Source of the DNA: Pseudomonadota bacterium
Lineage (GTDB): Bacteria > Bdellovibrionota > FAC87 > UBA2466
Assembly: GCA_043767805.1 (NCBI GenBank)
Contig: JAYUGC010000155.1
Location: forward strand, 1 to 24,186
Length of the DNA: 24,186 nt
Direction: 5' to 3'
The translations under genes were made by a program, and so were the position numbers. The notes under the pieces were generated by a model that had not been told where the DNA came from, did not search any database, and saw nothing but the letters and a program-made list of their open reading frames with translations. Shown here one piece after another: positions 107-23,521 of this stretch. Within the stretch, counting starts at the first letter, position 1; every line of letters begins with the position of its first letter.

Positions 107-126
107 AATCGGGGCGGCAGGATTTG
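107..126. repeat. att core, tRNA-distal junction (duplicated 3' end of tRNA-Pro)
   Basis: Identical to 7519-7538; in tRNA orientation CAAATCCTGCCGCCCCGATT = T-loop to discriminator plus 2 nt. Confidence 0.93.
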
Positions 127-334: not shown

Positions 335-1558
335 CTACGGCCCAGGGTATTCCAAAATGGTCTTCAAAGTAACGCTATCGGCCAGCCCTATTAACTTGAA
401 GGACTCCACTCCGTATTTGATAAAGCCCGGTCGAGGGAGAGCCTTGCCAATCACCAACGTTCCTTCCAGCTCGAAATCATGGGTGGAAGCCGCCGGCAGC
501 AAGCCAGACTCCAATCTCCCCCGCATTTCGTCTGGAAATTCAGAAAGCGGGAACACCTTCTGTTTGGGATTGAGCCGGATAGAGATCGAAAAAGCTTGGT
601 CCACTTTCACAGCGCTCTTAACTTGCAATACCCCGTAATCCGAAAGGGTACCATCTTTCTCTGAACGAGCGAGTATGGCGACATTCTCTTGCTGAAACTG
701 GTAGCGAAATATCACGCAACTTTTATCCGCCGGGAGCAAGAGCCATTGCCGGGCTCGATCGGAAAGGGAACATAGTTCGTACTGGCGGGGAGGCGCGAAA
801 AAGGACCCCAAGCTCGAAAGTTCGGTGGAAAGAAATTCTCCCGCAGTATTCTTTTCGAGAATATGCTCTGGGTATCGCTCCGACATCAAATTCATCTGCA
901 TGGGGTTTAGATCCATGCCCTTACCGCCTAGGTGCGCAATGCCCAAGGTGTGCCCAATCTCGTGAATCAGCACCCTAAGCAGTAATCCCTCGTGGGTCCA
1001 AGGCTCCGAGTTAAGGTGAGAGCCTACGTCGAACTTATTCTCTCCTTTATCAGAAGCGATATAGACATAGCCTTTCCCCCGCAATGCCACCTCGTCATAG
1101 GAAGTCCGAACCGTGACTCCTACATGCTTCTGGAGGGGGACAAGAAAGTCTTTCTGTCCTTGCGTCAAGGTCCCAGCACCGAATTGAAATCGAATGTCCT
1201 CGTTCCCATCGCAGGGAATAGAGACGAATTCCTGTAAACCCAACCCATCGAGAACGTAAAAGGAGTCGTGCAGTCGAATGAACTCCTCATGCCAAAATTC
1301 GAAGGCTTTCTTTATCGCACTTTCGATGACGGCCCGACTTGCGGAAACCGAGACGGGGTCATGATCGAGGCAGTACGCCACTTTGTGTACATTCCCAACG
1401 AACCAGGGGTTGTTCGCGTCATTAATTACATCGCCTCCAGAGGAAACCCCACTCCCTTGAAGAGCCGGCCCCTTAAGGCTCGATCCACAGCCTGGAAGGA
1501 GCAAAAAGATGAGTAACAAGAAAACGTACGCTCGTCTCATTGGGATCGCTTTCATCAA
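335..1558 (-). CDS. Metzincin-type zinc metallopeptidase lipoprotein (matrixin/M10-like)
   Basis: 407 aa; hydrophobic signal with lipobox LPGC; HEIGHTLGIAH fits HExxHxxGxxH; Met-turn candidate NLMS downstream. Start could be 1558, 1555 or 1540. Confidence 0.85.
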   Translation of the reverse strand: MMKAIPMRRAYVFLLLIFLLLPGCGSSLKGPALQGSGVSSGGDVINDANNPWFVGNVHKVAYCLDHDPVSVSASRAVIESAIKKAFEFWHEEFIRLHDSFYVLDGLGLQEFVSIPCDGNEDIRFQFGAGTLTQGQKDFLVPLQKHVGVTVRTSYDEVALRGKGYVYIASDKGENKFDVGSHLNSEPWTHEGLLLRVLIHEIGHTLGIAHLGGKGMDLNPMQMNLMSERYPEHILEKNTAGEFLSTELSSLGSFFAPPRQYELCSLSDRARQWLLLPADKSCVIFRYQFQQENVAILARSEKDGTLSDYGVLQVKSAVKVDQAFSISIRLNPKQKVFPLSEFPDEMRGRLESGLLPAASTHDFELEGTLVIGKALPRPGFIKYGVESFKLIGLADSVTLKTILEYPGP

Positions 1559-1597: not shown

Positions 1598-2053
1598 TCA
1601 TCGCGAGTATTCGCACCGATAGAGCGCCTTGCCGCCAGCCTCGGCATAGTGCTCAAGTTTATTGCCCTTCAGCTGGTACACTACTTTGCCCCTGATTTCT
1701 ACCGGGGCTTCGTTCCCTATTTTGCTCTTAGTGACGACAAAAAGTGCCAAGGAGTCGTTTGATTGCCATCGAACGTTCGTTACGGCCGATTGACTGGTGC
1801 CCAAAGACGGACTCGACACGATAAGGGTGGACTTTGTTCCTTGTAAGGGGAAATTCTCGCCATCGATATCGATGGAAACATCACAGCTCGTTTGGCGGAT
1901 CTTTGTGTTCGTCGGGATCTCCGCCCCCGTAGCGGTCTTACAGACTCCCCTCCATTTACCCGTAAAATCCGGACAATTTCCGCGCAAAGGACTCGCCTTT
2001 AGACCTTCCGGCAACAAGGCAAATAAAGCGACTAGCGTAATCACTGTCTTCAT
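1598..2053 (-). CDS. Secreted hypothetical protein (beta-rich, 4 Cys)
   Basis: 151 aa; signal peptide MKTVITLVALFALLPEGLKA; RBS GAGGAG upstream; CPDFTGKW start resembles small beta-barrel proteins. Confidence 0.8.
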   Translation of the reverse strand: MKTVITLVALFALLPEGLKASPLRGNCPDFTGKWRGVCKTATGAEIPTNTKIRQTSCDVSIDIDGENFPLQGTKSTLIVSSPSLGTSQSAVTNVRWQSNDSLALFVVTKSKIGNEAPVEIRGKVVYQLKGNKLEHYAEAGGKALYRCEYSR

Positions 2054-2232
2054 ATGACTCTTCTCCTCGATAAATCAGCATAGTAAAAGAGGCGTGGCCA
2101 CACCGCTCGAAGCCGCTGATTGCCCAACGCAATCAGCGCCCTCGAAGAGAACCTACGAAGATATTTGTAGAATTCCTATGAATTTATTCTATAAGAATGA
2201 CCTGTGATTTATCTTTTTGGATAATATTTACG

Positions 2233-3054
2233 ATGCAGGTTTTCGAGTTTTCCGATTATAAGGGGGCGATCCAGGAGCGACTGAAGGAGCTAAAGAAAGG
2301 TCCCGAAAAAGTCACCCTCCAGGAACTGGCCGCAAAGATACCGATGCAATACACCTATCTGTCTAGGGTGATGCACGATGACAAGGCCCACCTGAATGAG
2401 GACTGCCTCCATTCCGTCTGCGAGATCCTTCGCTTCGAGGCCGATGAGGCTGACTATCTCTTTCTTCTCCGCTCTCTGTCCATCACTCAGAGCCGGAATC
2501 GAAAGGCCGCGCTTCTTGGTAAGCTCGGGCGACTAAAACAAAATCGTGCCCTTAGGGCCGCAGTAATCGAAGGAGAGAAGACTCGGCTGGCGGAAGAAGC
2601 GGAGTATCTCTTAGATCCGCTCTGCATCGTGGTGCACGTTGCCCTTTACCTGAAACCCTATCGACATGCGCCCGAGTCCCTATGTCCAAAGTTAGGGATT
2701 TCTCCCGAAGAACTTCGAAGCGTCCTTAAGAAACTTTCAGCCATTCGATTCCTAGAGCTAGACTCCGCCGGGAAAATCACCAGAGTTTCCACGGAACGCC
2801 TGCACTTCAGTCCCGAACACCCGCTCATGCGCACCCACCAGCTTCTCGTGAAGGCGTTCGCCTCGAACTACGTTTTACGGACGAAAGAAGAGAACAAGCA
2901 CGGCTTTCTGTTGACCTTTTCCGGCGATCCGCAATGCTTCGAAAAAATTAAACAAGATTTCTTCTTCTTCTTGAAAGAAGTGGAAAAGCACGTCGAAGCT
3001 GCCGAAAACAAATACGTCTATCAACTCTGCTTCGACCTCTTCCGCTGGCTTTGA
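2233..3054 (+). CDS. TIGR02147 / DUF4423 family HTH protein (putative regulator)
   Basis: N-terminus VFEFSDYK, XRE-like HTH (LQELAAKIPMQYTYLSRV), C-terminus VYQLCFDLF typical of the family. ORF track opens at 2197; ATG 2233 preferred because it matches the family N-terminus and has a -10-like GATAAT 7 nt upstream. Confidence 0.85.
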   Translation: MQVFEFSDYKGAIQERLKELKKGPEKVTLQELAAKIPMQYTYLSRVMHDDKAHLNEDCLHSVCEILRFEADEADYLFLLRSLSITQSRNRKAALLGKLGRLKQNRALRAAVIEGEKTRLAEEAEYLLDPLCIVVHVALYLKPYRHAPESLCPKLGISPEELRSVLKKLSAIRFLELDSAGKITRVSTERLHFSPEHPLMRTHQLLVKAFASNYVLRTKEENKHGFLLTFSGDPQCFEKIKQDFFFFLKEVEKHVEAAENKYVYQLCFDLFRWL

Positions 3055-3212: not shown

Positions 3213-3259
3213 GGGTTCATGAATGCCGGAAGCGGTCATAACGAAGGCATGAAGGAGCA
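3213..3259 (+). repeat. 47-bp internal copy of integrase sequence (matches 7065-7111)
   Basis: 45/47 identical by direct comparison (mismatches at 3220 and 3236); encodes GFMNAGSGHNEGMKE versus integrase GFKNAGSGHNEGMKE. Confidence 0.92.
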
Positions 3260-3516
3260 TCTGCACCTTCCGGCGGACTCGCCTCTTCAACGACCCCACC
3301 AGACACTGGCGCGCCTGCGGGCCCTCGAAAAACTCGCGCGTCGAGGAGAGGGCGGGCACCTATTCCGTGATCGTTTCGGCCACCGCCAAAGAGCGGGAAT
3401 GGATCCGGCGCGAATTCATGGCTCTTCTCGAGCGAGCCGACCGACTCATTCGAAAAGCTCCCTCGGAAGAAGTCTTCCAATTGCACTTTGATCTATTTTC
3501 CTGGAGAGAGGAGTAG
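3258..3516 (+). pseudogene. 5'-truncated, frameshifted second TIGR02147/DUF4423 paralogue
   Basis: One frame gives HLHLPADSPLQRPHQTLARLRALEKL; after a shift near 3335-3360 another gives TYSVIVSATAKEREWIRREFMALLERADRLIRKAPSEEVFQLHFDLFSWREE*. Together collinear with RLHFSPEHPLMRTHQ...VYQLCFDLFRW of the upstream gene. Confidence 0.85.
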
Positions 3517-3547
3517 AGCTACGAATAGGCAGTCACGTAGCCGTAAT

Positions 3548-3919
3548 TCAGACCGCAATCTTGAAGATGATTTCAGTCGTGTTGGTCGTGAGGCGCGTTG
3601 GCTTTCCCTGCTTGTTCTGGTTGGTCTTCACGAGACCCAAACTCTGAAGCAACTCAACGTCACCGTACACATGCTTGAAATCCCGTTTTACGAAACGGGC
3701 GAGTTCAGCCACCGACTCGGGCTTAAACACCCGAATGGCCCGGAGAAGCGATAATCGGTTCTCCGTCAGAACACTACGAACGGCTTCCAAATTCTCGAAG
3801 TACTCCCCTTCCTTTCGCTTCACTCTCTTGCCATCCTGAATGGCTTTCATCGTAGTAACCGAGTCATCGAGTGATTGCCCGATGGTTCTAAGCTTTATTC
3901 GAATCGTCTTGAGTGCCAT
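3548..3919 (-). CDS. HVO_A0114-like wHTH protein, putative antitoxin
   Basis: 123 aa from ATG 3919 (MALKTIRI...); FENLEAVRSVLTENRLSLL...SVAELARFVKRDFKHVYGDVELL is typical of this family. The ORF-track extension to 4087 overlaps the partner gene and is probably not translated. Confidence 0.85.
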   Translation of the reverse strand: MALKTIRIKLRTIGQSLDDSVTTMKAIQDGKRVKRKEGEYFENLEAVRSVLTENRLSLLRAIRVFKPESVAELARFVKRDFKHVYGDVELLQSLGLVKTNQNKQGKPTRLTTNTTEIIFKIAV

Positions 3920-4211
3920 CGCTTTGAATCTCCTTTCGAATCTCGGCCAGGTCCCTATCAAAGTCAGACCGTAGGGTATCGAAGTCCTGGAACCCGTAAG
4001 GTTCCTCCCCGCCCTTCCAATGCCGGTGGTGGCCCTTGGGACTGTGGTTATCGTAGCCAACCAGGACCCGACCGGCGTGGACCGCAAAGAACGAGTATTT
4101 CACGCCCTCAGGATAGGCCTGTGACTTAGATACTCGCCAAACCTTCAATTCGACCACGATGCCTTCGGCGGTTCGAATTTTCTCATGAAAGACTTTCGCC
4201 GCCTTCGGCAT
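3888..4211 (-). CDS. DUF6516 / TumE-family putative toxin
   Basis: 107 aa with YPEGVKYS, GYDNHSPKGHHRH and EEPYGF motifs; overlaps the downstream wHTH gene by 32 nt. Confidence 0.85.
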   Translation of the reverse strand: MPKAAKVFHEKIRTAEGIVVELKVWRVSKSQAYPEGVKYSFFAVHAGRVLVGYDNHSPKGHHRHWKGGEEPYGFQDFDTLRSDFDRDLAEIRKEIQSDGTQDDSNKA

Positions 4212-4248
4212 ATGGCCTATTATGCCATACGATGGATTTCGATATCCA
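4211..4248 (-). promoter_or_regulatory. TA promoter/operator candidate
   Basis: Minus strand reads TGG-CATAAT-7 nt-ATG; palindromes TATGGC-N7-GCCATA (4211-4229) and TGGAT-N6-ATCCA (4233-4248). Confidence 0.5.
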
Positions 4249-4279
4249 ATTTATTTTTCATTTTCAATGGGATACGTTT

Positions 4280-4499
4280 CTGGACAAAAAGACTGTCCGG
4301 ACCGGTCACTTTTTTGTTTTGCTTAAGCGATTCAGTGCATTGACTCGCCTTTAGACGGAGATCTTGTCCATTTTGGCCGGAAATCCGGACAAAATTGTAT
4401 TCCCGTATATTTTTCATTCGTTACTTTGTTTTTCTTGATGATTTTTTTCGGAATTGTCCGGATTTCTGGACGGAATTTTATCGACGATAAAGGACCGGA
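4280..4499. repeat. Cluster of (C/T)GGACA / CCGGA inverted repeats in AT-rich DNA
   Basis: CCGGAAATCCGGACAA (4377-4392) versus TTGTCCGGATTTCTGG (4454-4469), 15/16 inverted; CTGGACA-N7-TGTCCGG (4280-4300); further partial copies at 4364-4369 and 4492-4499. Confidence 0.7.
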
Positions 4500-4545
4500 T
4501 TAACATTCTGATTTGATCTCGGTATCTTCCTCTCTCAAGCCAACT

Positions 4546-4561
4546 TGGCACGCACGTTGCT
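4546..4561 (+). promoter_or_regulatory. Sigma54 (-24/-12) promoter of the orf-relaxase-xis-int module
   Basis: TGGCAC-GCACG-TTGCT matches TGGCAC-N5-TTGCW; intergenic, correctly oriented, 83 nt before ATG 4645. Confidence 0.75.
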
Positions 4562-4644
4562 TTGTAACTTCCTTCACCAAGCGGATCTAGTTCGAACCAA
4601 AACTTATCTCTAAAAATACCGGACTCGCTCCGGAAAGGATTCCT

Positions 4645-4965
4645 ATGTCTTCAATGGAAATCTTCGGCGCCCTATTCGTGTTCACGGCCTACCTCTCAGC
4701 TCGACGGCTCGTAAAACACGCAAGGCTAGCGTGCCGAGATATGTTGATCGAGGTTCAGGCCGAAGTGGAACGCATAGACTCGACCTACGATGAGCTACGG
4801 AAAGATCACAACGCGCATATCTCAAATCTCGCCGGCCGCATTGAAAACTTTGGGGCGCAAATCACCCAAGTCACCGGCCGAATCACCAAACTGGAACAAA
4901 CCCCTCAGGTAAAAGCCAAGACCGCCGCAAGGAGCGCCATTGAGGAACTGGTGAAAGGACGGTGA
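4645..4965 (+). CDS. Small N-terminally membrane-anchored coiled-coil protein
   Basis: 106 aa; hydrophobic IFGALFVFTAYL then heptad-like helix; RBS AAGGA; stop overlaps the next start (GTGA). Confidence 0.75.
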   Translation: MSSMEIFGALFVFTAYLSARRLVKHARLACRDMLIEVQAEVERIDSTYDELRKDHNAHISNLAGRIENFGAQITQVTGRITKLEQTPQVKAKTAARSAIEELVKGR

Positions 4966-5765
4966 AGAGCAACGTCACGCCACGAGATCAGAAGCTCCTA
5001 CACCAATTGGGTGACTTCGGAGTGCTCTCGACCGGTCAGATTAGGGAACTTTTCTTTCCGGAAATAGCCAAGACGACGATGCTCAGACGCCTTCGGATCC
5101 TCGAACAGTGGGATCTAATCCGCAGGCTCCGTGGGCTTTCCGATGGAAGTCATGGGTGGTGTTTAAGTCAGCGCTGTGCCACGGCCCTTGGGTTTGTAGG
5201 CATCGGGCGGCGCCTTAATCGTCACACACTTGAACATGATGTCACCCTAAGCCAGGTCCGACTTGCGCTAGGGAGCGTAGGTCTTGGCACCCAGTGGACC
5301 CCCGAGCATGTGCTGCGAAACGAGGCTTGGCGAGCGCGCAAACCCCACACGCCGGAACCAGAGAACATTCCCGATGGAGTTCTGGCCATCGAGGTAGAGG
5401 GCAAATTCCTTGCTGTGGCGGTCGAGCTCGAGCTGAGCGCTAAGAACAAGGATCGTTACCGGAAGGCCCTTAAAGCCTACTGGTGGAAACATAACCTTGC
5501 CCTCATCTGGTACCTCGTTCCCCATGAGGCGCTAGGGCGAAAGCTGGAGCACATCTGGCATGAAGTCACTAGTGGGGGACCTGACATACGCCTACGGTGG
5601 TCAATCATCGAACAAGTCCTTAAACGGCCCTATGACATCGTTCTGCGTCGGAAAGGCGGAACCAGGCTACTTCGAGAAATAACACCAATGAAACCTCCGG
5701 ATGCTCACGAGGTTGCACACCCCATGAGCAGTCCCGATCGGGAAATGCCTAGCAATTCCACGTAA
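4962..5765 (+). CDS. Replication-relaxation family protein (Replic_Relax / MOB_C-like, wHTH + PD-(D/E)XK)
   Basis: TPRDQKLL...LSTGQI...RRLRIL wHTH; HTLEHD; PDG...ELE with D-x16-E-x-E; KDRYRKALKAY. GTG start with AAGGA RBS. Confidence 0.85.
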   Translation: MKSNVTPRDQKLLHQLGDFGVLSTGQIRELFFPEIAKTTMLRRLRILEQWDLIRRLRGLSDGSHGWCLSQRCATALGFVGIGRRLNRHTLEHDVTLSQVRLALGSVGLGTQWTPEHVLRNEAWRARKPHTPEPENIPDGVLAIEVEGKFLAVAVELELSAKNKDRYRKALKAYWWKHNLALIWYLVPHEALGRKLEHIWHEVTSGGPDIRLRWSIIEQVLKRPYDIVLRRKGGTRLLREITPMKPPDAHEVAHPMSSPDREMPSNST

Positions 5766-5770
5766 GGAGA

Positions 5771-5835
5771 CTCGCCCTCCGCTGCTGGCCCCTCCCCCTC
5801 TACGATGGGAAGGGGCCAGCAGCTACGGGCTCGAG
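5771..5835. other. Long GC-rich hairpin (origin/nick-site or attenuator candidate)
   Basis: Perfect 13-bp arms GCTGCTGGCCCCT (5781-5793) / AGGGGCCAGCAGC (5811-5823), extendable inward and outward; no poly-U on either strand. Confidence 0.6.
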
Positions 5836-5928
5836 AGAGTTCTGTAGTGTTCGAAGGACAGCGGGAAAAAAATACGGAAAAGAATGCGGATCTAGGATTG
5901 GAGAAATGAAAATGAACGAGAAAACAAA

Positions 5929-6195
5929 ATGGGTAATAGGGAACCTTTCAATCATTTGCCGGGGATCGGGGGAGTGGTTAGTATCCCCCAGCAGTTAAAC
6001 CGTCCAGAAATGGGTGGTGTGTTCTTTGGAAATCTGGTGACCAAGAGACAGCTCGCTGATCAGCTGAGTTTGTCCCCAAGCTTCATCAATAAACTGATGG
6101 GCGACGAAGGACTTCCTCATCTCAAGATTGGCCGAGCTGTCCGATTCAGAACAGTGGAAGTCGTGGCCTGGCTCCAACAAAGGAGAAGACCATGA
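5929..6195 (+). CDS. xis: HTH_17/AlpA-like excisionase (recombination directionality factor)
   Basis: VTKRQLADQLSLSPSFINKLM...GLPHLKIGRAVRF...VVAWL; ATGA overlap with the integrase; start uncertain (5929 or 6010). Confidence 0.85.
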   Translation: MGNREPFNHLPGIGGVVSIPQQLNRPEMGGVFFGNLVTKRQLADQLSLSPSFINKLMGDEGLPHLKIGRAVRFRTVEVVAWLQQRRRP

Positions 6196-7478
6196 CAACT
6201 AAGTTCAATCCCAAAACGTACCAAGGGAAAGACAAACTCTATGTCGCCATCCCTTCAGCGCCGCGCATATCGCGGGTTTGGATCTGGGGTGAAGGGCACC
6301 GGGAATACCGGTCCCCGGAAAACCAGAACCCCTACATGGCAAGACGCTGGGAGGACACAGGCGGAAAGAGGAAACGCACCTATCGTTTCTTCGAAAGCCT
6401 CGAAGCAGCGCGCACCTGGCAACAGGGAATCGAACAAGCCGTGGTACCGGAGCCCACAAAATCCGGACCCACTTTTCTCGAAATCATCGAGGAATGGAAA
6501 CGGCGGCGGTTCCCGGCGATGGAAGAAAGCACCACGGTTCGTTACGAAAACATGCTTGGCCTCTACTTCGATAGCCTCCTTGGGTTCACCATCCATGAGA
6601 TCACGCCCCAGCGGGTGGATCACTGGTTGGACGAACTAAAGGATCCGAAGTCGTGGACGATGAAGTCCAAGAAGCGGAAAATGTTCGACCACGAACTGAG
6701 CCTGCTTTCGACCATCCTGAAGTACTACGACAACTACCATGACGATCCCGAGTTCCGGTTTCCGATTAAGCAACGTCACAAGGACGGGGTTTGGTTGAAA
6801 CGAAGTTCGGGAGCCAAGGACAAGCAGTTGCCGGAGGAGCACTTCCTAAAATTCAGGGAAGCGCTCCGAAGTCTTCCGGAGGGGAAACTCCTCGCAGGTC
6901 TTGCGACGGTGCAGTACTACCAGGCCCTTCGGATTTCCGAAGTGGCGGCGCTCTACTGGGAAGATGTCTATCTCGACCAGGAGAACCCGAACCAGTCCCG
7001 CCTCAAGGTCCGTCGAAAGGTGTTCTGGCCCCGAAAGAAAGGACGCAAGTCTTGTGTCCAAGACGGGTTCAAGAATGCCGGAAGCGGCCATAACGAAGGC
7101 ATGAAGGAGCAACCTCTCTTCCCTGAAAGCCACGAGGCACTGGCGGAAAGGCATTGCCCCGGGGCGCGAGGACTCGTGTTCGAGATCGAAGGCACGCACC
7201 TCAAGTACGGCCTCCTACAGCACCGTTACGACAAAGCGTTCAAGAAAGCAGAGCTTCCCTACAGTGGCACTCATGTCATGCGCCACGGCGGATGTTCCCG
7301 GCTTTTCGACGAGCGCGGAGACCTGGGAGTGGCCAAACAGATCCTCGGCAACTCGTCGCTCAGGTCCGTTGAGGTCTACGCCCGCCGATCGAAGACGGCA
7401 CTTACCGACGTTGCGAAACAACATTGGGAGAAAAAACGTCTGAGACTGGTGGTTAGTGGTGGTTCGGAAAATCGTTAA
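6192..7478 (+). CDS. int: Tyrosine recombinase / site-specific integrase
   Basis: 428 aa; ALRISE (R), THVMRH (HxxR), ILGN (usually LGH), EVYA (Y); ends 42 nt from the tRNA 3' end. Confidence 0.95.
   Translation: MTTKFNPKTYQGKDKLYVAIPSAPRISRVWIWGEGHREYRSPENQNPYMARRWEDTGGKRKRTYRFFESLEAARTWQQGIEQAVVPEPTKSGPTFLEIIEEWKRRRFPAMEESTTVRYENMLGLYFDSLLGFTIHEITPQRVDHWLDELKDPKSWTMKSKKRKMFDHELSLLSTILKYYDNYHDDPEFRFPIKQRHKDGVWLKRSSGAKDKQLPEEHFLKFREALRSLPEGKLLAGLATVQYYQALRISEVAALYWEDVYLDQENPNQSRLKVRRKVFWPRKKGRKSCVQDGFKNAGSGHNEGMKEQPLFPESHEALAERHCPGARGLVFEIEGTHLKYGLLQHRYDKAFKKAELPYSGTHVMRHGGCSRLFDERGDLGVAKQILGNSSLRSVEVYARRSKTALTDVAKQHWEKKRLRLVVSGGSENR
7446..7465. repeat. Arm-type repeat inside integrase 3' end
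   Basis: CTGGTGGTTAGTGGTGGTTC identical to 239-258; two TGGTGGTT units 10 bp apart. Confidence 0.8.
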
Positions 7479-7518
7479 CTGAAAACCGCTTGTGCTATCG
7501 GAAGGTTAGTAAAAACAG

Positions 7519-7593
<75 letters not shown>

Positions 7594-7606
7594 ACAGAGA
7601 ACCCAG

Positions 7607-7635
7607 GTCTTAGCATGGCCTTGGCCGCCCGGCAA
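7607..7635 (-). promoter_or_regulatory. Sigma70-like promoter of tRNA-Pro
   Basis: TTGCCG-17 nt-TAAGAC with extended TG, 13 nt upstream of the tRNA. Confidence 0.5.
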
Positions 7636-7766
7636 AACGATGCCCACGTAGCCTAAAGTTGCACAGGCACCTTTTGTAGCTTTTCGAGGCAATTGTTTGC
7701 CAACTCCCCCTGTCATAACGCATCATTGCCGTCGCATTCTGACCCTTCCAGGAGAGGCTTGATTTC

Positions 7767-10148
7767 ATGAACAACCGGTTTTGGCGGCGGATCCTTATCG
7801 ACTGGTCGACCCCGCTCACCTTCTTCTTCATCGCCCTGGCTCTTTGGGGCGGTTACGTCAGCAAAGACATCGAGCTGAAACTCTCCCTGACCGACCTCTT
7901 GCCGCAAGACAACCCGGCGGTGACCAAGTTCAATAAGCTCACCGAAATCGTGGGCGGCGTGGGGTACACCGAAATTCTGCTCCATGCGAAAGACAAAAAA
8001 TCTCACCTGGAGATTGCCCAGAAAATCGTCGACGAGATGAAGACGAGCGCTCTCGTCCGCAGCGCCTTTTTCCACCGCGAAGAGCACTTCTTTCTAACTC
8101 GCGCGCTGTATTACGCCGACATGACCAAGCTCACCGAGTTGGAGAAGACGGTGGACACGGGCATCCAGACCGCTAAGCGCAAAGCTTTCGATATCGGCCT
8201 CTGGGAAGACGACAAGACGAAAAAGGAAGAGCCCAAAAAGCTCGATCCTGAGTTCAAGAAGTTCGCCGATCGCACCGAGCGCTTGTCCCCCTATCTCCTT
8301 TCGGCCGATGGCGAGCACCTCCTGGTCATGGTGAAGCCGAGCTTCGATTCCTTGGACATGAAAAAGAGCAAGGAGCTCGTGAAGTTCACTGAAGAGACCC
8401 TGAAGCGGGTCATTCCAACGGATAAGATCGAATACGTCATCTCCGGCCGCTATTTCAGCAAGGTCAAAGACGCCGAGGTCATCGAGGAAGATATCTTCAT
8501 TCTTGGCATCCTCTCCAACGTCGTCATGGCAATTGTGCTCCTCCTCTATTTCCGGAGCATTGCCGCGGTTATTTCCATTTTCACGCCCGTGGTGCTGGGA
8601 CTTGGCGTCACGGCGCTCATTACCCGTTACACCATCGGGCACGTGAACATCATTACGGGCTTTCTCGTCGGAATGCTCGCGGGCGTGGGCTCCGATTACG
8701 GGATTCATCTACTTTGGCGCATCCGCCTAGAGCAGCGCGAGGCCTCGAGCGCCGAGCCCGACGTGCTGTGGAGAACGCTACTCACCTGCGGCTGGGCTAA
8801 CTTCGTGACCTTAGTCACTACGAGTTTGTGCCTCTTCCTCATGTGCGGAAGCAATTTCAAGGTCTTCTCCGAGTTCGGTTTCATGGCGGGAGTCGGTCTC
8901 GGCGCCATTCTCATCACCAAGATGTGCACCTTCTATTGCACCAGCAAATGGCTGAACCTCGAAAAAGTGATGACGCGGGAAAAGTTCCCGTTCCATGGCT
9001 GGCGCCTGCCCATGCTGGAGAGCAAGCGCTCTTACGTCATCGCCCTCGTCGTGACGGGCCTTCTCTCGATTTACATGGTGAAAGTCGGCTTCGAGTTCGA
9101 CTTCGAGAAGATGCTCGAACATTCCCAGTCCATTCGCATCGCCGAAAAGATGATCGACGATATCTACGACCGCTCGACGACGCCGTCGGCGTTTGCCGCC
9201 AATTCCAAGGAAGAGGCCGTGGCCATCGAAAAGTTCCTCAAAGATCACTACATGCCGAGCATCGTATCGAGCGTCGTGAGCGGCGGCAGCATCATTCCCC
9301 CGGACCAGCAGGAGAAATCGATCATCGTGGGGCGCATCCGTAAGCGCATCGAAAAGCTCTCCGACCGATCCATCCGCGAAGGCGCCGGCGCGCCCGCTAA
9401 ATCCATCCGGGACTGGGTCAACGCGAAGCCTTTCGACTGGGCGGACTTGCCGGTGTACGTGCAGGAAGCGCTCCGCGGCCAGAAGCAGTCTCAGTACCTG
9501 CTCTACGTCTATCCGACGGAACATTTGAACACCGGCGGCGCCGTGAACCGGTTCGCCGGCATGATCAACGACGTCGACGCGCATTTCCCGGATATCGTCA
9601 GCGGCTCGGACGCGGGAATTTTTTCCGAGATTCTCGAGCTCATCAAACGAGACGGTCTCGTCTTGATGATGCTCATCGTGGTGCTCATCGGCGTGTTCAT
9701 CTGGATCAACTTGCGCGATTTGACTCACACGTTGCTGTCGTACGTCTCGTTTCTCATCTCGATGCCGCTCGGTATCGGCCTGATGGCGCTCTTCGGCGTG
9801 AAGTTTAATATCTTCAACGTGGCGCTGCTCCCGGTATTCATCGCCGCAGGTATCGAGATTCCGATTCAGCTGATGCAGCGGGCGGGCGAGATCAAGTCCG
9901 GCTATAAGGGCGTGCATGACATCGCGGTAAGCTTGCAGCTTTCCTTACTGACAACTCTAGTGGGCTTTGGTGTCTTGATTTTCACCCGGGCGGGAATTTT
10001 AAAAAGCCTCGGCTGGATGTCTATTCTCATGATCCTTTCGGGGTGGTGGGTTGGCCTCTTCATTCATCCGGCGATTCTCGAGCGCTACTTCATCTGGGAA
10101 AAGAAGCGCCACGCACGTTGTGCCAAATCGGGTCATGCGCCCGTTTAG
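7767..10148 (+). CDS. MMPL/RND family transporter
   Basis: 793 aa; two repeats of (TM, large soluble loop, 5 TM); LTDLLPQDNP and GSDYGIHL motifs; RBS GGAGAGG. Confidence 0.92.
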   Translation: MNNRFWRRILIDWSTPLTFFFIALALWGGYVSKDIELKLSLTDLLPQDNPAVTKFNKLTEIVGGVGYTEILLHAKDKKSHLEIAQKIVDEMKTSALVRSAFFHREEHFFLTRALYYADMTKLTELEKTVDTGIQTAKRKAFDIGLWEDDKTKKEEPKKLDPEFKKFADRTERLSPYLLSADGEHLLVMVKPSFDSLDMKKSKELVKFTEETLKRVIPTDKIEYVISGRYFSKVKDAEVIEEDIFILGILSNVVMAIVLLLYFRSIAAVISIFTPVVLGLGVTALITRYTIGHVNIITGFLVGMLAGVGSDYGIHLLWRIRLEQREASSAEPDVLWRTLLTCGWANFVTLVTTSLCLFLMCGSNFKVFSEFGFMAGVGLGAILITKMCTFYCTSKWLNLEKVMTREKFPFHGWRLPMLESKRSYVIALVVTGLLSIYMVKVGFEFDFEKMLEHSQSIRIAEKMIDDIYDRSTTPSAFAANSKEEAVAIEKFLKDHYMPSIVSSVVSGGSIIPPDQQEKSIIVGRIRKRIEKLSDRSIREGAGAPAKSIRDWVNAKPFDWADLPVYVQEALRGQKQSQYLLYVYPTEHLNTGGAVNRFAGMINDVDAHFPDIVSGSDAGIFSEILELIKRDGLVLMMLIVVLIGVFIWINLRDLTHTLLSYVSFLISMPLGIGLMALFGVKFNIFNVALLPVFIAAGIEIPIQLMQRAGEIKSGYKGVHDIAVSLQLSLLTTLVGFGVLIFTRAGILKSLGWMSILMILSGWWVGLFIHPAILERYFIWEKKRHARCAKSGHAPV

Positions 10149-21958: not shown

Positions 21959-22311
21959 CGGTAGATCAGGATCAAGATGATGCCGATCAGAACGAGCGCG
22001 CCGAGTCCGAGATAGATGCCGTCGCCACCGGCCGGAAGTTGATCCATCCGGGAGGCGACTTGGCGGACTTCGCTGTCCGAAAGGGCGGCGACACGGGTAC
22101 CGGCTTCCTCGGTACTGACTCCCCATTCCACTAATTTATTTTTCACTTCCGTGCGGTTCAGCCAGCCGGCGATCCGCGTCCGTTCGGCGCTCAAGTCGGA
22201 GACGACTTTTTCCGTCGATATCATCCCCGCGAATGCTTGAGTGGCCGGCAAGGTGATGGTGATTAAAGCGATCCAGAAAGAACGAGCGAACGAAGTAGTG
22301 TTGTGTTTCAC
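21955..22311 (-). CDS. PA2779-family protein
   Basis: GTG 22311 with GGGAG RBS; signal AFA-GMIST; RVAALSDSEV...LPAGG then hydrophobic tail; ATGA overlap with the peptidase. Confidence 0.9.
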   Translation of the reverse strand: MKHNTTSFARSFWIALITITLPATQAFAGMISTEKVVSDLSAERTRIAGWLNRTEVKNKLVEWGVSTEEAGTRVAALSDSEVRQVASRMDQLPAGGDGIYLGLGALVLIGIILILIYR

Positions 22312-23372: not shown

Positions 23373-23521
23373 CCCTATCCAGCAATCGTACGCCGCCTAG
23401 GCAGGCGAGGTGCCGTATTACGTCGCTTTTGGCGTAGACCAGGCTGAAACACCCTGGCGGCCTACTTGCACATTTCAGGGTTCGGCCTGAAGTCTGCCTT
23501 GCGTGTAGGCATGGAGTTTAG

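Follow-up and report, generated by a model that had tools for sequence, protein, structure and literature searches.

A candidate sigma-54 promoter upstream of the relaxase module of an integrative mobilizable element in a Bdellovibrionota genome

What switches on the mobility genes of a small integrated element if their apparent promoter belongs to a class that depends on an activator, and the element encodes none? This question is raised by contig JAYUGC010000155.1 of assembly GCA_043767805.1 (GTDB lineage Bacteria; Bdellovibrionota; FAC87; UBA2466), the whole of which, 24,186 nucleotides on the forward strand, constitutes the window of this analysis. The window contains an element of 7.4 kb located between 20-nt direct repeats at a tRNA-Pro gene. 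Within it, a small open reading frame (ORF), orf106, is followed by genes for a relaxase, an excisionase-like protein (xis) and a tyrosine integrase (int). An earlier inspection of the letters alone, here called the sequence-only reading, had assigned these four genes to one operon under a sigma-54 promoter. The coordinates of all features are collected in Table 1.

The proposed promoter motif, TGGCAC-N5-TTGCT, is present exactly as claimed and points into orf106. Its -24 GG (4547-4548) and -12 GC (4559-4560) doublets are separated by exactly 10 nt. On both strands of the window, TGGCACGCACGTTGCT is the sole match without mismatch to the consensus used for scoring, TGGCACNNNNNTTGCW (TGGCAC-N5-TTGCW). 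Perfect matches averaged 0.01 in dinucleotide-preserving shuffles, and only one shuffle out of 100 had any. Matches with up to two mismatches numbered 11, against 8.1 ± 2.2 expected, which is not above chance; hence only the perfect match and its placement carry weight. The motif is intergenic, oriented like orf106, and ends 84 nt before the ATG at 4645, which is preceded by an AAGGA ribosome-binding site. Counted from the GG doublet, the predicted transcription start falls near 4572, the same value as had been proposed before, and leaves a leader of about 73 nt. In doublet spacing, consensus match and placement the site conforms, at the level of sequence, to the sigma-54 class, and we consider it likely that it is a working enhancer-dependent sigma-54 (RpoN) promoter.

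The surroundings of the motif are in keeping with such a promoter. The control region comprises 433 bp between orf106 and a divergent gene pair encoding a phrog_16135 protein and a winged helix-turn-helix (wHTH) protein. The inverted repeats with A/T tracts that had been described upstream of the motif were recovered as three repeats, 68-269 bp upstream, built on TCCGGA or TCTGGA and with T-rich tracts between them; TCCGGA occurs four times in 4270-4640, where 0.09 occurrences are expected. The middle repeat is a palindrome with 12-nt arms that are 92% complementary and differs by one mismatch from the idealised palindrome, and 82 bp separate the proximal one both from this middle palindrome and from the -24 GG. 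Two matches to the core consensus of integration host factor (IHF), WATCARNNNNTTR, were found in the window (0.88 expected), one of them between the proximal palindrome and the motif. By our own arithmetic, the chance of a match in this gap is about 0.88 x 70/24186. The predicted succession of palindromes, IHF site and -24/-12 element is the order shown in textbooks for enhancer-dependent sigma-54 promoters.

The relaxase allowed the control region to be compared with those of related elements. It matched the Pfam family Replic_Relax with an E value of 8.5e-9, above the gathering score, and the NCBIfam model 'MobC family replication-relaxation protein' with an E value of 4.5e-10 (39 bits against a cut-off of 200 bits). 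A large protein set held 23 homologues, mostly metagenome proteins, and an alignment across 21 homologues revealed D138, E155, E157, K161 and Y166 as invariant. MOBC relaxases are described in PMC6736028 as having a DEE metal-binding motif and a PD-(D/E)XK-like fold, and the invariant residues fit this DEE motif. A scan of genome contigs with the 13 closest relaxases yielded seven loci (L001-L007), all in metagenome-assembled genomes (MAGs) of the Bdellovibrionota type or labelled 'Deltaproteobacteria'. Plasmid relaxases found by tblastn (seven Bacillus plasmids, 23-24% identity) were too distant for a promoter comparison. The seven loci share a module in which a small membrane/coiled-coil ORF precedes the relaxase and a second small ORF leads on to a recombinase, except that the contig of L001 ends before the recombinase. 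Large serine recombinases occupy this place in L002, L004, L005, L006 and L007, and tyrosine integrases in L003 and the window; this points to a modular exchange of the integration function around the module of small ORF and MobC relaxase. The upstream comparison covered six loci, L002 having no upstream DNA and the closer relaxases P0002-P0014 (50-66% identical) lying outside it.

The strongest support came from L006, a Bdellovibrionales MAG whose relaxase is only 34% identical. In this 5.5-kb locus a perfect motif, TGGCACGCGAGTTGCT, is located at 2046-2061, 114 nt before the first small ORF, and is the only sigma-54 match (0.01 expected). Two copies of AATACGTAATNACGTAT, 79 bp apart, stand 106 bp from the GG doublet, so that paired upstream palindromes about 80 bp apart occur in both elements. 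The single IHF-consensus match of L006 (2017-2029) lies between palindrome and motif, as in the window; the corresponding chance, calculated in the same way, is 1.06 x 96/5499. The three-part layout is hence shared with one distant relative. Around the motif the two elements are otherwise barely alignable, which suggests that selection, and not neutral inheritance, accounts for the shared 17-mer.

Both leaders were also inspected for signals of their own. In the window a palindrome directly 5' of the ribosome-binding site repeats the TCCGG theme, and as RNA it would form a weak hairpin (-7.5 kcal/mol, z = -1.4); the leader of L006 contains CGTGA-AAA-TCACG, which is loosely related to its upstream repeat. 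A conserved leader RNA structure was dropped as a candidate, given unremarkable folding scores for the window leader (4572-4660, z = -0.41) and that of L006 (z = -0.7 to -1.3). An Rfam scan of 3400-8000 returned the tRNA and a sub-threshold miRNA match only, leaving the control region without a known RNA family. An ORF on the reverse strand within the control region (4220-4417) had no family match in NCBIfam or PHROGs searches and was treated as non-coding. Just past the predicted start, GCGGATCTAG occurs at 4581-4590 and again at 5886-5895, 43 nt before xis; in L006, GGATCTAG at 2079-2086 is offset from the -12 element in a similar way to GCGGATCTAG in the window. These words were not used as a shared signal, since words this short can be expected to recur by chance in a sequence of 24 kb.

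The other relatives, together with several features of the control region itself, weigh against a working sigma-54 promoter. L001, whose relaxase is 50% identical, keeps both half-sites at the equivalent place (TGGCAT-GAAA-TTGCA at 1718-1732, 141 nt before the ORF; 0.01 expected for the pattern), but its spacer is 1 nt short (GG-N9-GC). To judge from spacing mutants of sigma-54 promoters, the loss of this one base should leave the L001 site inactive. L001 further contains five GAGACT units 60-100 bp upstream of the motif and AGTCTCAG at 1757-1764, downstream of the predicted start. An IHF-consensus site at the equivalent place was found neither in L001 nor in L003. In L003 (relaxase 33% identical), TGGTTCACCGTTTGCT at 7585-7600 has two mismatches and stands 401 nt before residue 1 of the relaxase, as in the window. 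The longest frame of the small ORF (ATG at 7541 with a GGAGG site) encloses this site, which at the same time stands 82 nt before an internal ATG at 7682, which would give an orf106-like protein of 105 amino acids; we regard the L003 site as ambiguous. L004, L005 and L007 (relaxases 34-36% identical) have no GG-N10-GC site with up to three mismatches. They share instead a non-coding block of about 500 bp upstream of the small ORF (L004:6980-7500, L005:5800-6320, L007:6900-7440), about 80% identical and with long invariant blocks, in which no sigma-54 motif, no Rfam match and no covariation was found; attP, oriT (origin of transfer) or an RNA are possibilities for it. Among six loci, one motif is perfect, one has the short spacer, one is ambiguous with two mismatches and three have none. 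The conservation of GG-N10-GC that had been named as a check is thus patchy, and the motif appears to be lineage-specific and not family-wide. Moreover, the window element, L006 and L001 each have a further copy of the palindrome motif on the downstream side of the predicted start, the palindrome sequences of these three differ completely, and a weak sigma-70-like site, TTAACA-17-TATCTT, stands just upstream of the motif.

From these points it could be argued that the sigma-54 match is a relic or a coincidence, with the operon transcribed from a sigma-70 promoter, for example the one at 4500-4528, and the palindromes serving as operators for the divergent wHTH repressor or in autoregulation by the relaxase. 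The presence of a sigma-70-like site, the wHTH gene read divergently from the same region, the TCCGGA motif on both sides of the promoter, and the lack or wrong spacing of the motif in three of six relatives and in L001, respectively, would all fit. However, the sigma-70 match is one of 9/12 positions and not above shuffles (four such sites in 3400-8000 compared with 2.0 ± 1.4), and the divergent wHTH gene is not kept beside the module in L001 or L006. A perfect 16-nt match with 0.01 expected per window, perfect again in L006 at the same place, and IHF-consensus sites placed alike in both elements are also hard to reconcile with a coincidence. We judge this explanation unlikely, although it deserves the most serious consideration among the alternatives to a sigma-54 promoter.

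The downstream copies and the unrelated repeat sequences bear on the palindromes in particular: a role as operators particular to each element, or as an oriT to which the relaxase binds, suits them no less well than that of a host enhancer, and the TCCGGA palindromes could be any of these. An oriT is to be expected close to a relaxase of the MobC type. In a further alternative, the conserved 17-mer and the repeats would be the oriT itself and the resemblance to sigma-54 promoters incidental. Mobilisation oriTs are common in the position that this region occupies, immediately 5' of the relaxase module; the repeats differ between elements as the relaxases diverge, and an alignment read by eye indicates a wHTH-like segment at the N-terminus of the relaxase. 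Every member of a conserved relaxase family should possess the nick site, but L003, L004, L005 and L007 lack the 17-mer, and all 12 positions of sigma-54 specificity match in two elements. Besides, an oriT among the palindromes would be compatible with a promoter at 4546-4561 and would not replace it. An oriT in place of a promoter is consequently improbable. Nor does the sigma-54 promoter require the palindromes as enhancers, since some bacterial enhancer-binding proteins (bEBPs) act without DNA binding.

If the site is a sigma-54 promoter, its activator has to be sought elsewhere. The sequence-only reading had noted no activator between the att sites, and family scans extended this to the contig: neither a Sigma54_activat domain nor another AAA+ activator was found among the 26 + 21 ORF translations of the element and the 24-kb contig, and Sigma54_activat was likewise absent from all 47 ORFs scanned, out of 59 of at least 170 amino acids, from the seven related loci. 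From this it follows, provided that the promoter works, that the activator would come from the host or from a helper element. The rpoN gene itself is not on the 24-kb contig; Bdellovibrio has rpoN.

The missing activator also leaves room for a holoenzyme that binds but is never activated, in which case its stable closed complex would block or silence sigma-70 transcription coming from upstream, or insulate the divergent units from each other. Such a role would agree with the lack of a cognate activator gene on element and contig and with the sigma-70-like site 18 nt upstream of the motif, and genome-wide studies have revealed sigma-54 binding sites that are not productive. The IHF site and the phased upstream palindromes are features of activated promoters, though, and of all the alternatives this one appears the least probable.

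Sites outside the element suggest that the host uses the sigma-54 promoter class. Similar motifs had been reported before three host genes; such motifs are indeed present, but there are four candidates (Table 1), located 13-52 nt upstream of genes and with GG and GC intact. One of them precedes the DUF6627 gene, which is followed by a gene for a C39 peptidase-TPR protein. Apart from the element's own motif, seven matches with intact GG and GC and up to two mismatches were counted, of which four lie within 100 nt upstream of co-oriented genes, where about 5% of positions are expected to fall. The position-uniform binomial P of 1.9e-4 for this placement depends on a gene list of our own, with the start at 22311 picked after the motif had been seen. 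The idealised TCCGGA palindrome is absent near these host motifs and anywhere in the window outside 4373-4473, and there is therefore no evidence here for a regulon shared with the host.

How far a transcript from the promoter would reach is a separate matter. The orf106-relaxase module is its safe target, as the two genes overlap and the order of small ORF and relaxase is also kept in the relatives. The proposed operon of four genes stands as far as gene order is concerned, whereas co-transcription of xis and int, and with it control of excision by this promoter, is no more than a possibility: a GC-rich hairpin without a U tract directly follows the relaxase stop, within a gap of 163 nt before xis. 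The 171-nt region containing it folds at -59.1 kcal/mol (z = -3.64), a value reached by none of 200 shuffles. The hairpin may be a terminator, an attenuator, a processing site or a DNA site such as oriT, and the transcription unit may end after the relaxase, before xis.

Assuming a functional sigma-54 promoter, the following course can be proposed. RNA polymerase-sigma-54 holoenzyme would rest on 4546-4561 in a closed complex and keep orf106 and the MobC relaxase switched off, with hardly any leaky expression. This complex would be remodelled by an AAA+ bEBP supplied by the host chromosome or by a co-resident element and not by the element itself; the bEBP would bind the palindromes or act from solution, and an IHF bend near -65 would help opening. 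The relaxase module would then be transcribed, and xis-int would be reached only if the hairpin were passed. As a bolder extension, the element may use this all-or-none switch as a sensor, so that the relaxase module, and possibly excision, fires only with a specific AAA+ activator. This activator might be supplied by a conjugative helper, in a sigma-54 version of the SGI1-AcaCD relationship, or might be a host bEBP linked to one phase in the life cycle of a predatory Bdellovibrionota host, and the element-specific palindromes would be the matching enhancers, diversifying with the activator. We put this forward as a speculation that is rather unlikely to hold in full. Behind a sigma-54 promoter and with no activator on the element, a mobility module would stay off unless an ATPase acting in trans switched it on, and horizontal transfer would be tied to one defined signal. 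These considerations apply to a small family from uncultured Bdellovibrionota-like MAGs and have a purely computational basis.

The remainder of the island is summarised in Table 1. The att repeat has only two copies in the window at up to three mismatches (0.02 expected), and the G+C content between the copies, about 0.46-0.57, is below that of the rest of the contig, about 0.55-0.65. Searches of Pfam, NCBIfam and PHROGs detected no type IV secretion system and no coupling protein among the 11 ORFs of the element. With an integrase, direct repeats at a tRNA gene and a relaxase of its own, but without genes for secretion or coupling, the element is by its sequence an integrative mobilizable element (IME). 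The contig starts only 106 nt outside attL, and the junction of the island may be where the assembly broke. Within orf106, only weak sub-threshold Pfam matches were obtained; its position and a C-terminal AIEEL-like motif are conserved in the relatives. The phrog_16135 protein has neither a Pfam nor an NCBIfam match. For the wHTH gene the listed ORF starts at 4087 and overlaps the phrog_16135 ORF by 200 nt in a different frame; the family matches begin near residue 60, and the true start is probably near 3910.

Table 1 Features of the window, from the left end of the element to the host part of the contig
Feature	Position	Strand	Basis or remark
attL-side 20-nt direct repeat AATCGGGGCGGCAGGATTTG, left end of the element	107-126		exact repeat of 7519-7538
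M10-like peptidase	335-1558	-	family searches
Secreted-looking protein	1598-2053	-	family searches
DUF4423/TIGR02147 protein	2197-3054	+	family searches
wHTH protein (Pfam HVO_A0114, phrog_11214)	~3548-3910	-	family searches
phrog_16135 protein, 107 aa, divergent from the control region	3888-4211	-	PHROGs
Distal inverted repeat TCTGGAC-N9-GTCCGGAC, centred ~-281 from the predicted start	4279-4302		motif matches
Middle 26-bp palindrome ATTTTGGCCGGA-AA-TCCGGACAAAAT, centred ~-190	4370-4395		inverted-repeat search
Proximal palindrome AATTGTCCGGA-TT-TCTGGACGGAATT, centred ~-107	4452-4478		inverted-repeat and motif search
Weak sigma-70-like site TTAACA-17-TATCTT, 9/12, possible alternative promoter	4500-4528	+	consensus scan
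IHF-consensus match AATCAGAATGTTA, centred ~-65	4501-4513	-	match to WATCARNNNNTTR
Sigma-54 type -24/-12 element TGGCACGCACGTTGCT = TGGCAC-GCACG-TTGCT	4546-4561	+	sequence read directly
Leader palindrome CCGGA-CTCGC-TCCGG, ~+54, just 5' of the AAGGA ribosome-binding site	4619-4633		sequence
orf106, small, N-terminal hydrophobic segment and coiled-coil-like region	4645-4965	+	ORF
Replic_Relax (PF13814)/MobC-type relaxase	4962-5765	+	Pfam, NCBIfam
GC-rich hairpin, 27-nt arms, directly after the relaxase stop, without U tract	5774-5830	+	inverted-repeat search
Excisionase-like HTH_17 protein (xis)	5929-6195	+	TIGR01764, E = 3e-6; PHROGs
Tyrosine integrase (int)	6192-7478	+	phrog_1, E = 4e-28
attR-side direct repeat, covers the 3' end of tRNA-Pro	7519-7538		exact repeat of 107-126
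tRNA-Pro(tgg)	7520-7594	-	tRNA/Rfam scan
Sigma-54-like motif, 2 mismatches, before host gene	11780-11765	-	
Sigma-54-like motif, 2 mismatches, before host gene	19604-19589	-	
Sigma-54-like motif TGGCATGCACCTTGCT, 1 mismatch, 32 nt before the DUF6627 gene	22358-22343	-	
Sigma-54-like motif, 2 mismatches, before host gene	23455-23470	+	

Two further repeats were observed in the element. An exact 20-nt direct repeat, CTGGTGGTTAGTGGTGGTTC, is located at 239-258, about 130 bp inside attL, and at 7446-7465, where it falls in the 3' end of int and some 55 bp inward of attR; its copies could be arm-type binding sites of the integrase. A 47-nt segment of int (7065-7111) is repeated at 3213-3259 with 96% identity, corresponding to a match of 15/20 residues to Int residues 292-311. 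An origin of this repeat from tandem elements was rejected, as there is no third att copy and the match to Int covers only 20 residues.

Several known systems can be set beside the element. Its relaxase resembles those of MOBC systems (CloDF13 MobC, pAD1 TraX) in its Replic_Relax/MobC matches and in the invariant D138, E155, E157 and Y166. In contrast to the known members, which are found on plasmids of Enterobacteria and Firmicutes, this family resides in chromosomal islands of Bdellovibrionota-type MAGs and adjoins tyrosine or large serine recombinases.

The classical enhancer-dependent sigma-54 promoters with an IHF bend are those of nifH, TOL Pu and glnAp2. The orp operons of Desulfovibrio vulgaris are likewise described as co-regulated by sigma-54, IHF and OrpR (PMC3897727, PMC8359166). 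The element shares with these promoters GG-N10-GC doublets within a full TGGCAC-N5-TTGCT, palindromes about 100-280 bp upstream and an IHF site between. It differs in that their activator is known and usually encoded nearby, whereas here no bEBP is present on element or contig, in that the downstream genes concern mobility and not metabolism, flagella or stress, and in that palindrome copies also occur downstream of the start.

To our knowledge, IME regulation has been worked out in only a handful of models, and these rely on sigma-70 promoters together with activators or repressors encoded by the element or by a helper. In the literature covered, with most subscription journals outside its scope, we found no report of sigma-54 control of a mobility operon of an integrative and conjugative element (ICE), IME or prophage; the term 'RpoN' appeared only in the reference lists of an ICE review (PMC5812530) and of one further paper (PMC5882170).

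The closest parallels in behaviour are SGI1, which answers AcaCD of IncC plasmids, and the mobilizable genomic islands (MGIs), which answer SetCD of SXT/R391 ICEs. AcaCD and SetCD are FlhDC-like activators that act at sigma-70 promoters, whereas in our case the promoter class would be sigma-54 and the activator an AAA+ bEBP; the analogy is one of function, and we do not count the element among these islands. With a helper-borne activator, the element would nonetheless be like SGI1 and the MGIs in being a small integrated element with its own int, xis and mobilisation genes that stays silent until an activator is present in trans.

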